A stretch of 64,000 nt of DNA from an uncultured Kiritimatiellota bacterium (GTDB lineage Bacteria; Verrucomicrobiota; Kiritimatiellia; RFP12; UBA1067). Positions 21,089-26,515 of the stretch are shown here, piece after piece; position 1 is the first letter of the stretch; every line of letters starts with the position of its first letter. Location of the stretch: NCBI GenBank assembly GCA_934635385.1, contig CAKTZI010000020.1:1820-65819 (forward strand), read 5' to 3'. Both the position numbers and the translations under genes were made by a program. The notes beneath the pieces are model-generated. The model was not told the origin of the DNA. It was given only the letters and a program-made list of their open reading frames with translations, and did not search any database.

Positions 21089-22594
21089 ATGTTTTGCACA
21101 CAGTGCGGTCAGGAAATCAACGACAAGGCGGTCATCTGCGTCAAATGCGGATGCGCCGTCACGCCACAGGCTGCGCAGCCGATTGCGCCAGAAGTCAAGT
21201 CTGCGGACGAACTCCCTGAGAAATGGACATGGGCGTTGGCCACCGTCCCAATTATCGTCTCGTGGATACTGGCAGGGCTGTTGCCGACGGTGTTCGAAAA
21301 TAGCGACCCATCCCGGCTCGCGCACATCACGACCGCCGCGACCATCCTCCTGAATCTCATTTTCCTGTCGCTTGACGTGAAAGTCCTGAAGAAAGCGGAA
21401 CGTGACATCGAGAAGGCCTTATGGCTTGGGTTCATCTTGATCCCGGTCTACCTTTTCGTACGCGCGGCGAAGTATTCAAAGAAATACGCTCCGGCCATTG
21501 TCTGGTGCGTCCTTTTCGTGCTTGACTTGGTTGCCACAACAGATGAATTGGAAGAAAAGCAAGATTCCGCTGAGCAGAACGCAACCTATAGTCTTGAGAG
21601 CAGGGGCGTTCCTGTTGCGCAGGATACGGCGAAAACAGGCGAGATTGAAGACGTGGCTGAAACGGTCAACGAAATCACGGAGAATATCTCGCAAGAGGTT
21701 GTCCCTCCGTCGGACGTTCAAGAAGTTGTCAGTCTGCGGGATTTCGCGGTTCGTGAACCCTATCGAAGCCGTCGCATTGGTGATTTGCGAAAAGGGGCCG
21801 CCTACAAGTATGAGGCCCATCCCGGATACATGGAATCATACAAGGTGTTGCAGGTGGTGTCTGACGGATGCATTCTCGCGATCATGGATGTCGGCGATGA
21901 TCCTGACTTCTCCGAATACACACAAGCCGTTATTTTGGTCAAGACGAAGCGTGAATATGTTGATGACCAGTACCTTGAATCTGGCGTTTACGCCTATCGC
22001 GGAACTTACACATACGAAACTACGTTAGGCGGGTCGAAGACCGTTCCCCAGTTTCAAGAGGTTCGGGTAGATTCTTCACGGGAACGGAAGCCTGCGTCCA
22101 CTTCGAAAATCAATCTGAAAACCATCGTCGCCCGTGAAGACGGAAATGTGGTCGGTATGTTTGGCGTACGGCTTGGTGTTAAGGCGAAGGCCCTGTCGGA
22201 GAAAGACGTTGGGGCGATTGGCAAGCCAATTGTCGTTCCTGAATCTCAGGGTGGCGGCCTTTTGTACAGGTACGACTATCGGGGGAATCGTGGCATTTGG
22301 GACATGTTTACATTCCAAACGGAAGGCGAAGACAGCCCGGTGTTTTGCGTGGAAGCGGTTAAGTCTTATGATAACGAGGCGATGGCGTTGTCCGGCGCGC
22401 AGAGTCTTCTTGTGTTGCTGAAGAACCGTTATGGCGTTTCCATGACGAAGAATCAAATGGCAACGAAAGTCCATGCCTGGTTTCAGATCCTTAAGCAACC
22501 GCACAACACCGTCCTCGCGACTGTAAAGGTGGCCGGAAAAGAAGGAACCTACCTTTTGTCCTATTCAATGATGGCGCTTCCCCCAGACACGTGA
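21089..22594 (+). CDS. N-terminal zinc-ribbon multi-TM membrane protein with a C-terminal globular domain (501 aa)
   Basis: MFCTQCGQEINDKAVICVKCG, then 4 TM segments. The C-terminal segment YLESGVYAYRGTYTYETT is shared with the lipoprotein at 27293. Confidence 0.6.
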   Translation: MFCTQCGQEINDKAVICVKCGCAVTPQAAQPIAPEVKSADELPEKWTWALATVPIIVSWILAGLLPTVFENSDPSRLAHITTAATILLNLIFLSLDVKVLKKAERDIEKALWLGFILIPVYLFVRAAKYSKKYAPAIVWCVLFVLDLVATTDELEEKQDSAEQNATYSLESRGVPVAQDTAKTGEIEDVAETVNEITENISQEVVPPSDVQEVVSLRDFAVREPYRSRRIGDLRKGAAYKYEAHPGYMESYKVLQVVSDGCILAIMDVGDDPDFSEYTQAVILVKTKREYVDDQYLESGVYAYRGTYTYETTLGGSKTVPQFQEVRVDSSRERKPASTSKINLKTIVAREDGNVVGMFGVRLGVKAKALSEKDVGAIGKPIVVPESQGGGLLYRYDYRGNRGIWDMFTFQTEGEDSPVFCVEAVKSYDNEAMALSGAQSLLVLLKNRYGVSMTKNQMATKVHAWFQILKQPHNTVLATVKVAGKEGTYLLSYSMMALPPDT

Positions 22595-22645
22595 AGCCAC
22601 GGATGATGCGAATCAGCACGAGAAACAAGAGCATCAGAAAACCAC

Positions 22646-22990
22646 TTGATTATGTTCTGCCGACACTGCGGACACGAAATCAATAGCAAAGCGGTCCTCT
22701 GCCTGAATTGCGGATGCGCCGTCGATTCTGCCGAGCCGATGCCGGAGGCGTCAGCCCAAGCCGCCGTTCGCCCGAACGAATGGCTGGCGGCCGTCCTCCT
22801 GTGCATCTTTCTCGGCTCTCTCGGAATCCACCGCTTCTACACGAAGAACACGGCGGTCGGTGCCGCGCAGCTCGTCCTTGGGCTGCTCACCTGTGGCGTC
22901 GTCAGCTGGATTTGGTCGTTCATCGACATGATCATGCTTTTGACCGGCAGCTACACAACGGGTGACGGTCGTTTCCTGACAAAAAACTAA
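22646..22990 (+). CDS. Zinc-ribbon + TM2-domain protein
   Basis: MFCRHCGHEINSKAVLCLNCG, then WLAAVLLCIFLGSLGIHRFYTKNTAVGAAQLVLGLLTCG (TM2 signature). Confidence 0.7.
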   Translation: MIMFCRHCGHEINSKAVLCLNCGCAVDSAEPMPEASAQAAVRPNEWLAAVLLCIFLGSLGIHRFYTKNTAVGAAQLVLGLLTCGVVSWIWSFIDMIMLLTGSYTTGDGRFLTKN

Positions 22991-23015
22991 ACACAACGAA
23001 AGAGAGGTAGGTAGT

Positions 23016-23375
23016 ATGTTCTGCAAGGAATGCGGAGCCCAAATCAATGACAAGGCGGCGATATGCCCTAAATGCGGTGTGCCGGTCGCGTCGGCCAAGC
23101 CGGCCTTGGCGGAAAAGGAGAAGGTCTCGAACCACATGATCGAGGCGATCATCGTGACGCTTTTCTGCTGTCTGCCGTTCGGCATCGTTTCAATCGTCTA
23201 TGCGTCGAAGGTCAACGCGCGGCTTGCGATAGGGGATGTCGAGGGCGCCAAGGCGGCTTCACGTTTGGCCAATCGGTGGCTGCTGACGGGCGCGGGCCTT
23301 GCCGGTGCCCTTGGCCTTCTGTGGGCGGCCTTGTGCGCGCTGGGCGTGGTGAGCGAGGAAATGCTGGCGCTGTAA
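23016..23375 (+). CDS. Zinc-ribbon + CD225/dispanin-like membrane protein
   Basis: MFCKECGAQINDKAAICPKCG, then TLFCCLPFGIVSIVYASKVN (CD225-like). Confidence 0.65.
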   Translation: MFCKECGAQINDKAAICPKCGVPVASAKPALAEKEKVSNHMIEAIIVTLFCCLPFGIVSIVYASKVNARLAIGDVEGAKAASRLANRWLLTGAGLAGALGLLWAALCALGVVSEEMLAL

Positions 23376-23399
23376 AAGGAGCGCACCAAGAGGGATCTG

Positions 23400-23813
23400 A
23401 TGTCGTTTGTCCCTGCGGATCGAACGTTGTGCGACACGTCGGGCGATTCTGCTCGGCGTGCCGCGCGGCGTCCAAGATGGTGGGCGTTCATGATTGCTGC
23501 GTTCGCGCTTGCCGCCCTCGCGTTCCTCTACTTTTGCAATCCCTCCGACGTGCCGTATTTCCCACGCTGTCCGTTTCTGGTGCTGACAGGTTACCAGTGT
23601 CCGGGATGCGGGACGCTGCGCGGTATCCACAGTCTGCTGCATTTCAGATTTCGGGACGCTTGGGGCTACAATCCGTTTCTGGTCGTCTCGATTCCCCTGA
23701 TCGCGGCACTTGTGCTGTCCCCTCGCTTTCGCAGAAGCCCGCATGTGTCCAAAACGGGTCTCACGGCAATTCTCGCCTATTGGCTGTTGCGTAATATGGG
23801 GCTTGGGAGATAG
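23400..23813 (+). CDS. DUF2752-like membrane protein (CPxCG motif)
   Basis: FPRCPFLVLTGYQCPGCGTLRG plus TM helices. Confidence 0.5.
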   Translation: MSFVPADRTLCDTSGDSARRAARRPRWWAFMIAAFALAALAFLYFCNPSDVPYFPRCPFLVLTGYQCPGCGTLRGIHSLLHFRFRDAWGYNPFLVVSIPLIAALVLSPRFRRSPHVSKTGLTAILAYWLLRNMGLGR

Positions 23814-23825
23814 TGTCATTAGCTG

Positions 23826-25400
23826 GGGTCTGACACCCGTGGTAGGGTACAAGTGGTAGGGTTCGGCGGATTGAGGGGCCTGTCCCCAATCTGAACCGCA
23901 GAAAACGTCGAGAAATCGGACATTTTGAGCAGATAGCCTAAAATGAGGTATAATGTAGAACAAGTTCCTTTTTCACGGTGGAGAAGGACTTGTTCCTTGA
24001 CAACTGGCTGGATGGCATACGACTTGCAAACATGCCGACGCGCGCCTGCGCCGCGAAGCGCCGCGCGCGTCGGCATGTTCACAAGTCTTTCCGCCGGAAG
24101 CGGAAGATCCTCCCATTTGGTACAATGTGAGCTGGAGCGCACTGGCCACGGTGGCCGTGCAAAACACAGACAGACAGGAGGAACCAAATGAACGGAGAGT
24201 ATCATGCCACAATCGGCATGGACGTGAGCGACCGCACGACGAAAGTCTGCGTCATGTCCAAGGAGGGCGGCGCGAGGCGCATCCTCGAGAAGACGACGAT
24301 ACCCACGACGGGGGACGGGCTCCGGGCGTACCTTTCCGGCAAGGGCGCGGACTGGCCGGTGGTGTTCGAGACCGGCGCGCACTGCCGCTGGATGAGGCGC
24401 GAGGTCGAGTCCCTCGGCATGAGGGCGATCGTCGCCAGCCCGTCGAGGCTGCGGATGGTGACGGAGTCCGACACGAAGGACGACCGCAACGACGCGAGGG
24501 ATCTTGCGAGGCTCGCCCTCGCCGACGCGGAGCTGCTGCACCCGGTGAGGCTGCGCGGCGAGCGGTGCCAGCAGGCGCTGCGGCTGCTGAAGGCGCGGGA
24601 CATGCTCGTGAAGGTCCGCACGATGCACGTGAACGAGCTCAGGGGGTTCGCGAAGTCCATGGGCTTCAGGCTGCCGGACTGCCCCGCCAACAGGGCGCAC
24701 GCCATGGACAGGTCCGGGCGGCCCGCCGACTTCGAGGCCGTCGCCTGGCCGCTGATGGGCGTGCTGGAGACGGTGGACGTCAAGACAAGGGCCTGCGAGG
24801 CCCAGGTCCGGGCGCTCGTTCGGCGGCTGATGGTCGAGGCGGCGCAGATTGCCCTGCGAAGCGCCGCGAAGGACACGGACGCGAAGCTCAGGGGCGAGCG
24901 GATGTGCGCCAGGGGCGGCAGGATCGCGAAGAGGAAGGCCCTCGTCGCGGTGGCGCGCTGCCTCGTGGTGACGGCGGCGGCGCTCCTGAAGAGGCCCGAC
25001 GCGAAGTACGTGCCGCTGTCCGAGGCGGCCAGGCGCGAGTTCGAGGCGATGCGCGCGTCTGAGGCGTAGCCCGTCCGGAGGGAGGCTGCGGACACGGGGC
25101 GAAGACGACGGTTTCGGCGAAAAGCAAAGATGTCGCGTCGCGGGAGAGTGCGGACTTGGATTCTGCATCATCGAATGCGCCAATGAGGCAGCACCCCCGC
25201 CGACGCATTATAAGGTGCGCGGGCGACGAAAGTCCCAGAGCGCGGATAGGAGAAGGACATCACCTGCTTTCGCGGCCTGCGGAATCGCTCCGCGATGGCC
25301 TATTGACTTTTGTTCTCATAGGAGGTCTGATGCGGAAAATTCTGTGAGCAAAAAGTGTCAGACCCCAATGGTGGGGTTCGCGTGGTAGGGTTTGCGGGCG
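23826..25400 (+). mobile_element. IS110-family insertion-sequence-like element (boundaries approximate) flanked by ~45-bp direct repeats
   Basis: Flanks gtctgacacccgtggtagggtacaagtggtagggttcggcgg (23828-) and gtcagaccccaatggtggggttcgcgtggtagggtttgcggg (25357-). About 360-nt structured non-coding left arm, then a DEDD-type transposase. Confidence 0.6.
24188..25069 (+). CDS. IS110-family (DEDD) transposase/recombinase, short (293 aa)
   Basis: N-terminal YHATIGMDVSDRTTKVCVM (the IGIDVSK motif), LVKVRTMHVNELRGFAKSMGFRL, and C-terminal ALVAVARCLVVTAAALLK. Confidence 0.7.
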   Translation: MNGEYHATIGMDVSDRTTKVCVMSKEGGARRILEKTTIPTTGDGLRAYLSGKGADWPVVFETGAHCRWMRREVESLGMRAIVASPSRLRMVTESDTKDDRNDARDLARLALADAELLHPVRLRGERCQQALRLLKARDMLVKVRTMHVNELRGFAKSMGFRLPDCPANRAHAMDRSGRPADFEAVAWPLMGVLETVDVKTRACEAQVRALVRRLMVEAAQIALRSAAKDTDAKLRGERMCARGGRIAKRKALVAVARCLVVTAAALLKRPDAKYVPLSEAARREFEAMRASEA

Positions 25401-25561
25401 CAGATGTTCGGATGCGATCGCGCGGTGTAAATGTCGTTCGGGCGGATGGCCAGCAAGATCGTCTTCGGTTATGGTATACTAAGGTTGTTTCGATTGGAGT
25501 GCTAATCGAATCGAAATCGACGGGAGTTGATGCCGAATCGACGCAATGAAAGGGTCTTAAG

Positions 25562-26515
25562 ATGAACGAGAAAAACCAGCTTGTGCTATTCAAGTCGAAA
25601 GACGGGCAAGTCAGCTTGCCCGTGACGCTGGAGCGCGAGACCGTCTGGCTTTCGCAGCGGCAGATGGCGGATCTGTTCGGGAAAGACCGAACGGTCATCG
25701 GACGTCATATCCGAAATGCGATAGATGAAGGTGAGATTGACGAGAAAGTGGTATGTGCAAATTTTGCACATACCACTCGTCACGGCGCGATGGAGGGACG
25801 TACTCAGAGCCAGAATGTCATTTACTACAATCTCGATGTCGTGATTTCGGTTGGCTATCGTGTGAAGTCGCAGCGCGGCGTCGAATTCCGGCGTTGGGCG
25901 ACGTCCGTGCTGCGCGACTATCTGCTCAAGGGCGCGGCTGTCAACGAAATGCGTCTGCGTCAGCTCGGACAGGCCGTCGAGGTGATGAAGCGCGTCTCGA
26001 ACCGACTGGACGCGGAACAGGTCTTGGATGTCGTCAAGGCGTACTCGTCGGCACTCGACCTTCTGGACGCCTACGACCATCAGACGGTTGGCAAGCCAAA
26101 AGCGCGGGCGCGCTCGGTCGAGCTGACTTACGCGGACTGTCGTGCGTTCATCGACAGCATGAAGTTCGCCGAGACGTCGCCGCTTTTCGGCAACGAGAAG
26201 GACGGCTCCTTCAAGTCAGCGTTGGGCGCGGTCTACCAGTCCTTCGGCGGAAAGGATCTCTATCCGTCGGCACAGGAGAAGGCGGCGAACCTGCTTTATC
26301 TCGTCACGAAGAACCACGGCTTCTCCGACGGGAACAAGCGCATCGCGGCTGGGCTCTTTCTCTATTTCCTCCAGCGCAACAGACTGCTGCTGCGCAAGGA
26401 CGGCTCCAAGCGCATCGCCGATTCGACGCTTGTCGCGCTGACGGTCATGATCGCCGAGTCGCGTCCGGCAGAAAAGGAAATGATGGTCAACCTCGTCATG
26501 ACCTTCTTGGCCTGA
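25562..26515 (+). CDS. RhuM-family N-terminal domain fused to a Fic/Doc domain
   Basis: RhuM-like VIYYNLDVVISVGYRVKSQRGVEFRRWATSVLRDYL. Doc-type motif HGFSDGNKR. Confidence 0.75.
   Translation: MNEKNQLVLFKSKDGQVSLPVTLERETVWLSQRQMADLFGKDRTVIGRHIRNAIDEGEIDEKVVCANFAHTTRHGAMEGRTQSQNVIYYNLDVVISVGYRVKSQRGVEFRRWATSVLRDYLLKGAAVNEMRLRQLGQAVEVMKRVSNRLDAEQVLDVVKAYSSALDLLDAYDHQTVGKPKARARSVELTYADCRAFIDSMKFAETSPLFGNEKDGSFKSALGAVYQSFGGKDLYPSAQEKAANLLYLVTKNHGFSDGNKRIAAGLFLYFLQRNRLLLRKDGSKRIADSTLVALTVMIAESRPAEKEMMVNLVMTFLA

Follow-up and report, generated by a model that had tools for sequence, protein, structure and literature searches.

The 64,000-nucleotide stretch analysed here, hereafter the window, comes from an uncultured Kiritimatiellota bacterium (GCA_934635385.1, contig CAKTZI010000020.1, positions 1,820 to 65,819). 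Its positions 23946–25324 (forward strand) very probably hold a single, non-autonomous and internally deleted copy of an insertion sequence (IS) of the IS1111 group of the IS110 family, with a bridge RNA in the 3′ arm, a regulatory leader in the 5′ arm, and two flanking 45-bp repeats that are host DNA. An earlier note, based on the letters alone, had described an IS110-family element here, with a bridge-RNA-like 5′ arm and with the repeats as its possible target or guide-matching sequences.

The limits of the element were obtained by blastn and anchored alignment against 40+ related copies located in unrelated contexts. These place the start at 23946 (AG followed by GTATAATG...) and the end at 25324 (...CATAGG followed by AG), which corresponds to 1,377 bp counting one core AG. 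The collapsed 1.59–1.6-kb contigs of relatives stop at the same two points. The loci used comprise the relatives' DNA from the protein search and 35 further loci from species-representative genomes, the latter mostly rumen or gut metagenome-assembled genomes (MAGs) of Kiritimatiellia and Lentisphaerae; the IS family circulates in these bacteria. On the left, the core dinucleotide AG (23946–23947) follows the target left arm (LT), ...AAAATG, which ends at 23945. Nearly all of the approximately 40 left junctions read flank, AG and then G/ATATAATG; TG stands there in two rows, and in one of these the end was mis-called on a truncated contig. On the right, the core AG (25323–25324) precedes the target right arm (RT), GTCTGATGC..., which starts at 25325, and every right junction reads CATA(G/A)(G/A), AG and then flank. 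The junctions share the AG core and no other duplication, and no target-site duplication is visible at the window element. The limits proposed previously, 23871 and 25355–25356, are therefore replaced by 23946 and 25324, and because the element starts at 23946 the 5′ non-coding arm measures about 240 nt rather than about 320 nt. Full-length relatives are about 1.6 kb long and code for transposases of 365–368 amino acids (aa) with DEDD and Tnp domains. The window element would have had a length of about 1,596 bp before it lost 219 bp.

The deletion lies in the transposase gene (24188–25069, forward strand), whose G+C content is 70–74%, versus 51–58% in the flanks. Its 293-aa product matches PF01548 (DEDD_Tnp_IS110) over residues 9–154 with E = 2.9e-12. 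The acidic residues D12, E61, D99 and D102 are all present, and the DEDD RuvC-like domain is intact. PF02371, the Tnp domain, was sought in the 293-aa protein and gave no match. A protein search recovered relatives of 365–368 aa, 80–86% identical to the window protein, all of which carry both PF01548 and PF02371. With NCBIfam NF033542, "IS110 family RNA-guided transposase" (cut-off 140 bits), a full-length relative scores 201.8 bits, and the window protein 95. The blastn coordinates and the protein alignment locate the junction of an in-frame deletion of 219 bp (73 codons) at about 24811–24812. The missing residues appear as a clean gap in the alignment and correspond to positions 209–281 of the full-length relative P0003. 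The deleted segment, which includes the core of the Tnp domain, contains the GIG helix-hairpin-helix region and the motif QRQSGD. The Ser-Gly of this motif, Ser267-Gly268 of P0003, aligns with the Ser-Gly pair of IS621, which is the published S241-G242 provided that the deposited chain has two extra N-terminal residues. In IS621, S241 forms the covalent 5′-phosphoserine intermediate, and its mutation abolishes recombination (PMC11208158). Because 73 codons including the catalytic Ser-Gly were lost in frame, the window copy is predicted to be unable to recombine on its own and is thus not autonomous.

Judged from these matches, the window protein is a degraded member of the IS110 family and not an outsider, since its full-length relatives at 80–86% identity carry the Tnp domain. 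The family assignment of the earlier note holds on the strength of the PF01548 match and the DEDD residues, and so does its reading of a 293-aa open reading frame (ORF) with an N-terminal DEDD motif. The shortness of the protein and its lack of a helix-hairpin-helix, both remarked on there, are confirmed, the latter region lying inside the 73-aa deletion. That note had added that a truncated transposase would speak against its proposal, and the gene is indeed an internally deleted derivative without the catalytic serine. A tblastn search found no second transposase copy in the 64-kb window. Among plasmid-borne IS110-family sequences in the collection searched, the best named matches, e.g. ISMno14-like, are only about 33–35% identical. 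A second case of in-frame deletion in this transposase, of separate origin, is P0014 (309 aa; found in JGI and ENA contigs): the Ser motif is kept, but some 54 aa that normally lie between the coiled-coil and the Tnp domain are missing. Internal deletions have thus arisen repeatedly in the lineage.

The family conserves both non-coding arms; in the window the left one measures about 240 nt and the structured right one about 255–257 nt. Published IS1111-group elements have the bridge or seek RNA in the right end and subterminal repeats of 7–17 bp (PMC11208160; PMC11187229). The guide RNA of the present family is likewise encoded after the transposase gene, in the 3′ arm, as expected for IS1111-type elements; we assign it from covarying helices and a covariance-model match to a module at 25128–25263 (forward strand). 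Across the family this module is 133–136 nt long. Within an outer stem lie, in order, a target-binding arm that has an internal loop, a first junction strand (J1), a small hairpin and a second junction strand (J2). RNAalifold predicts 29 pairs, 10 of which show compensatory changes. The paired cells amount to 96.9%, against 21–50% when the partners are slid, and the covariation score is 0.237 against 0.03–0.08. The covariance model of the module gives 132 bits at 25128–25263, its sole match in the 64-kb window, and no match in the 5′ arm.

The loops of this putative RNA correspond to the flanks and ends of the elements that encode it. The 5′ strand of the target-binding internal loop (25153–25164) is the right-target guide (RTG), whose reverse complement gives core and RT; in the window it predicts the right target AG-AATCCAAGTC. 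The 3′ strand of the same loop (25179–25191, GCCAATG-AG-GCAG) is the left-target guide and contains LT in the sense orientation, the core and a handshake dinucleotide that usually equals the first bases of the left end (LE). The agreement of guides with their own flanks was evaluated family-wide over about 27 de-duplicated independent insertion events. It reaches 131 of 243 positions for the RTG (68 ± 7.5 when permuted) and 107 of 156 for the left-target guide (42.6 ± 6.4 when permuted); in both cases none of 20000 permutations reaches the observed value. J1 (CATTATAAGG, 25206–25215), the right-donor guide, is complementary to the LE sequence TATAATG (23949–23955). It is conserved, and its covariation with LE variants is partial only. 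J2 (GATAGG-AG-AAG, 25245–25255), the left-donor guide, carries the terminus of the right end (RE), CATAGG, in the sense orientation, then the core and a handshake dinucleotide. Its variants ATAGGAG, ATAAGAG and ATAAAAG track the RE terminus in every locus readable for both (about 25), and the two nucleotides after its core are usually the first two of RT.

An alignment-free word test leads to the same placement. The longest word that the 3′ arm shares with its cognate target averages 7.31 nt, versus 6.17 nt for non-cognate targets (0 of 2000 permutations). The same test on the 5′ arm gives 6.10 versus 6.02 nt, a difference reached by 632 of 2000 permutations. A bridge or seek RNA is predicted in the element, as the earlier note supposed, and its location in the 5′ arm is not sustained, since the word test is positive for the 3′ arm alone and the covariance model is silent in the 5′ arm. 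One 5′-arm sequence, CCTCCTAT, was considered as a donor guide and rejected; it does not track the RE-terminus variants and is accounted for by the anti-Shine-Dalgarno pairing described below. A small conserved hairpin (ATCGC-TCC-GCGAT, 25284–25296, forward strand) between the bridge RNA and the −35 half of the junction promoter may represent the 3′ end of a longer form of the RNA. In locus L019 it reads GTCGC...GCGAC, which keeps the pairing.

The two ends carry further features of the family. When RE is joined to LE, TTGACT (25303–25308, forward strand; TTGACA in most relatives) and TATAAT (23949–23954) form the −35 and −10 halves of a putative sigma-70 promoter, here called Pjunc, which is assembled when the ends abut in the circle. 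The window arrangement is TTGACT-17 nt-TATAAT. Family-wide, the −35 half is TTGAC(A/T), and all 21 distinct end pairs have a spacer of exactly 17 nt; in one of these pairs the left end was mis-called on a truncated contig. The circle junction implied by the window ends is ...TTGTTCTCATAGG-AG-GTATAATGTAGAAC. Subterminal inverted repeats of 10 bp lie 5 and 3 nt inside the ends, with the left one, ATG(T)AGAACAA (23953–23963), complementary to the right one, TTGTTCTCAT (25310–25319). In 20 end pairs they covary between the ends, ATGAGAACAA, ATGGGAACAA and ATGAGAAGCG each occurring with a matching RE variant. In the integrated state, the host flank provides a TTGAGC 18 nt upstream of the element's TATAAT (23925–23954; 10 of 12 positions fit the consensus). 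Transcription of the 5′ arm may thus be possible from this host-flank sequence even when no circle is formed.

The 5′ arm appears, from its conserved pairings, to be a regulatory leader and not a guide. Its first hairpin (GAACAAGTTCC...GGACTTGTTC, 23958–23995, forward strand), located where the Pjunc transcript is predicted to begin, is conserved with compensatory changes, e.g. AU:12 versus GC:8. The second (24021–24087) consists of 25-nt arms (24021–24045 and 24063–24087) that are 92% complementary. Its base is invariant (GACTTG-CA-AACATG... / ...CATGTT-CA-CAAGTC), and its GC-rich apex is variable and covarying. Both had been noticed previously as strong hairpins, which their conservation and covariation in the relatives bears out. 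A third hairpin in the 5′ untranslated region (GCACTGGCCACGGTGGCCGTGC, 24139–24160) has three compensatory pairs, e.g. CG:12 / GC:8 / AU:1. The three hairpins together include 15 pairs with compensatory changes, and several G-U pairs fit the sense strand only. Between the second hairpin and the start codon, an anti-Shine-Dalgarno sequence containing CCTCC (GATCCTCC, 24106–24113) pairs with the ribosome-binding site at 24175–24184. Cognate partners form helices of 8.8 bp on average and non-cognate ones helices of 6.9 bp, and none of 20000 permutations reaches the observed value. The extended −10 of a putative internal promoter (TGGTACAAT, 24118–24126) sits between the two pairing partners, and the motif TGnTAnAAT is kept in most aligned relatives. 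We infer that the anti-Shine-Dalgarno would act as a classical device blocking translation of transcripts begun upstream.

Hairpin 2 carries no guide, as no cognate target match was found in LE. A function as an intrinsic terminator was considered and rejected, since no conserved U-tract follows it. In loci L025, L027, L032–L036, L046 and L048 it is doubled in tandem with differing apical stems (5′ arms of 329–335 nt). The invariant base, the covarying apex, this tandem duplication and the sense-only G-U pairs are the grounds for a tentative suggestion, to which we give a low probability, that hairpin 2 is a functional RNA in its own right, e.g. a recombinase-binding or expression-control element of a kind undescribed for bridge-RNA transposons.

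We propose the following mechanism for intact members of the family, in which the sequence-level steps come from the present alignments and the biochemistry from IS621 and ISEc11. A DEDD and Tnp recombinase with a serine nucleophile would excise the element as a circle, and the joining of RE to LE across the AG core would build the consensus promoter TTGACA-17 nt-TATAAT. A structured RNA of about 135 nt, encoded downstream of the transposase gene, would serve as the guide. One of its internal loops would pair with both target strands (left arm plus AG, and AG plus right arm), and its two junction strands with the ends of the element itself. Insertion would then take place by recombination at the AG core, without target duplication. 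In transcripts begun upstream the anti-Shine-Dalgarno could occlude the ribosome-binding site; the putative internal promoter lies past it.

Several points weigh against this interpretation of the window and its family. The window's left flank matches its own guide (AATG+AG+G), but the right flank, GTCTGATGC, agrees with the predicted AATCCAAGT at only 2 of 9 positions, which is chance level, and the handshake dinucleotide agrees with the right flank at 0 of 2. The history of the window insertion is therefore not explained. An equally poor right-flank match occurs in four or five of the other 26 insertion events. Exact-protein look-ups of both neighbour genes gave filled alleles only, so that no empty site was recovered by this route. 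Circles, RNA and promoter activity are all predictions at the level of sequence, and the permutation tests ignore relatedness among elements, although the guide/target pairs were de-duplicated. An Rfam scan of 23000–26200 returned three chance-level matches (E ≥ 3.5), none inside the element. The long 5′ arm is atypical of IS1111-type elements. Finally, the ratio of nonsynonymous to synonymous substitution rates (dN/dS) is 0.25–0.34 for the window lineage and 0.12–0.27 among full-length copies. The relaxation is slight at most, and apart from the deletion itself these values do not establish that the ORF is decaying.

The right-flank mismatch leaves three options, namely an off-target insertion, insertion with another copy's RNA, or a later rearrangement. 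The full predicted cognate target is CCAATG-AG-AATCCAAGT, and AG-AATCCAAGT occurs nowhere else in the 64-kb window, where only the guide itself matches. The right flank was also considered as a decayed remnant of an IS or of an LE (GTCTGATG versus GTATAATG, 6 of 8 identical). This idea was rejected because neither flank aligns locally to a full-length element better than shuffled sequences do. A metagenome scan for the empty site with a 22-mer from the left flank returned one unrelated chance match, L055; the empty-site sequence implied by the flanks is ...CCTAAAATG-AG-GTCTGATGCGG. The right flanks of L006, L013, L014 and L018 share with the window (25331–25343) the stretch TGCGGA(A/C)(A/G)AAAT, located 8–19 nt to the right of the element. 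These insertions are independent, with unrelated left flanks, and the shared stretch lies beyond the guide footprint. The sharing probably reflects a host repeat family and suggests a repeated host sequence as the preferred target.

It is possible, if unlikely, that the window copy is non-autonomous yet still mobile, being moved in trans by a full-length copy elsewhere in the genome. A helper with a differently programmed RNA would account for the right-flank mismatch, as the window's guide and handshake agree with each other (both predict an RT of AA...) and not with the actual flank. The copy retains intact ends and subterminal repeats, both halves of the junction promoter and every helix of the RNA module, and a mini-IS consisting of ends only has been mobilized when transposase and seekRNA were supplied in trans (PMC11187229). 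Such movement, however, requires flanks that match the seekRNA (PMC11187229), and GTCTGATGC is predicted by none of about 30 relatives' guides. The 64-kb window contains neither a second copy nor an orphan guide RNA. In addition, every contig recovered from four samples (ERR7746411, ERR7745759, ERZ27286942 and ERZ28613602) has the identical deleted allele in an unchanged genomic context, which suggests that it is fixed and immobile. The window copy is most likely a frozen relic.

The flanking repeats, which had been taken to adjoin the element, are real, diverged copies of about 45 bp; they do not adjoin it. The left module (23824–23870) lies 75 nt outside the IS end and comprises one arm of a 13-bp inverted repeat, TGGGGTCTGACAC, and two GTGGTAGGGT(A/T) repeats. 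The right module (25355–25400), 30 nt outside, comprises the other arm, GTGTCAGACCCCA, with GGTGGGGTT and GTGGTAGGGTT. The direct repeat between them spans 36 nt at 78% identity (23828–23863 and 25357–25392). Words resembling GTGGTAGGGTT occur three times, where 0.27 are expected, and none of 100 shuffles reaches three. The inverted repeat that heads each 45-mer is perfect (TGGGGTCTGACAC at 23824–23836, its complement at 25355–25367); the earlier note mentions neither it nor the structured 3′ arm. We looked for further copies of the module in the window, in 55 fetched loci and in viral contigs and found none. We conclude that the repeats are a duplicated host intergenic motif that brackets the insertion site by chance.

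Alternatively, the modules could be a MITE-like element (a miniature inverted-repeat transposable element) or could form a regulatory repeat. With the IS removed, they would delimit about 167 bp of the interval that separates the DUF2752 gene from the RhuM/Fic gene. That they are the ends of such a small host repeat, entered by the IS, seems quite improbable to us. It would fit the perfect bounding inverted repeat. It would also fit the position of several relatives in palindromic sequences resembling repetitive extragenic palindromes (REPs), e.g. GGCGGCGTGTCCCCACGCCGCC, as REP-type repeats are targets of many IS110/IS1111 elements, and the TGCGGA..AAAT shared by several right flanks beyond the guide footprint. 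On the other hand, the absence of any further module copy in the sequences searched does not suit a repeat, no target-site duplication is visible, and the inversion covers 13 bp only, the remainder of the modules being a direct repeat. A resemblance of the 13-bp repeat, GGGGTCTGAC..., to a Tn3-family terminal repeat was rejected by eye because only the first 10–12 nt match, the inner TAAG end is missing and the arms diverge after 13 bp.

The original model, a 5′-arm bridge RNA as in IS621 with the 45-bp repeats as duplicated target or guide-matching donor and target, is highly improbable. In its favour are a long arm of about 240 nt, three hairpins with compensatory changes and repeats that do exist, but the arm's match to the flanks is not cognate-specific, the covariance model finds the guide in the 3′ arm only, the repeats lie outside the ends set by 40+ related copies with junctions sharing AG alone, and no relative is flanked by anything similar. 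Equally remote is a domesticated DEDD-only protein that, kept with the intact guide RNA, would bind DNA under RNA guidance as a regulator or inhibit related transposases in a dominant-negative manner: the exactly in-frame deletion in an otherwise open ORF, the intact DEDD residues and a dN/dS still below 1 would suit it, whereas that ratio derives mostly from divergence older than the deletion, the 90%-identity cluster consists of one sequence, every long contig recovered has the same single context, and the other short variants (P0014, P0027 and P0035) carry different, independent deletions typical of decay.

Upstream of the insertion, window positions 21089–23813 contain a run of four small membrane-protein genes, coding for a 501-aa protein and for TM2-domain, CD225-domain and DUF2752 proteins. 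The first three of them start with a near-identical zinc-ribbon motif, MFCxxCGxxINxKAxxCxxCG. The next gene downstream (25562–26515) fuses a RhuM-family N-terminal region to a Fic/DOC domain. The longer contig L001 also has PIN-domain genes in the vicinity, and the neighbourhood has an accessory or island-like appearance. A separate observation concerns L043 (positions 1–1902 of the Clostridia MAG contig JAFPWH010000025.1), in which a right end is followed by 20 nt (GAAATTTCGATTTCCAACGT) and then by a second left end; the 11 nt before this second left end equal the contig's own left flank. Either two IS copies stand in tandem here, 20 nt apart, or the assembly of a repeat has wrapped around.

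The window itself matters little, as it holds a dead IS copy in an intergenic region, and its repeats and short ORF have ordinary explanations. At the family level the use is modest: the predicted 3′ bridge RNA is delineated in full, the core (AG) and the handshake positions are defined, and about 27 guide-target pairs are available from natural insertions. These could make the family an extra orthologue for bridge-recombinase engineering. The case also illustrates that an IS110-family gene with a long structured 5′ arm is by itself insufficient to place the guide RNA. Among about 350 ISfinder entries, just 26 have two long non-coding regions (Siddiquee et al. 2024, PMC11187229). The lineage is undescribed but typical of the IS1111 type and occurs in rumen Kiritimatiellia and Lentisphaerae; we count it as new within the known group because its named plasmid-borne relatives are only about 33–35% identical.

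Comparison with the IS1111 group (ISEc11, ISKpn4, ISPa11 and IS5075; PMC11187229; Durrant et al. 2024, PMC11208160) reveals extensive similarity. The full-length relatives share the DEDD and Tnp transposase, and the 10-bp subterminal inverted repeats fall within the 7–17 bp of the group. Also shared are the position of the structured guide RNA after the transposase gene, the correspondence of its loops to the two target arms and the two element ends, the lack of duplication beyond the common dinucleotide, a circle-junction promoter (here predicted from the ends), and the location of several relatives in palindromic repeats. The differences are the core dinucleotide AG, arms of about 240 nt (left) and about 255 nt (right) in place of the usual tendency to a short left and a long right end, and an RNA whose target arm sits within the outer stem closing the donor strands. 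The family transposase is at most about 35% identical to the plasmid-borne matches, and the window copy further differs in lacking the Tnp catalytic core.

With IS621 (PDB 8WT6; PMC11208158) the family shares left guides in the sense of the DNA top strand and complementary right guides, 2-nt handshake positions that match the recombined product, and the alignment of the DEDD residues and the Ser-Gly loop. In contrast, IS621 has its RNA in the left end, ahead of the gene, a CT core and subterminal repeats of only 2–3 bp, and its target and donor loops form two successive stem-loops; the proteins are weakly similar (E = 3.6e-8 over the C-terminal half). A further element, ISPpu9 of Pseudomonas putida, set beside our family by its description only, is reported to be an IS110-family element in repetitive extragenic palindromes with a small RNA gene, Ssr9, downstream of the transposase (PMC12288879). 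Orphan copies of that RNA gene are reported elsewhere in its genome, whereas the 64-kb window has none, its single guide-RNA module lying within the element at 25128–25263.

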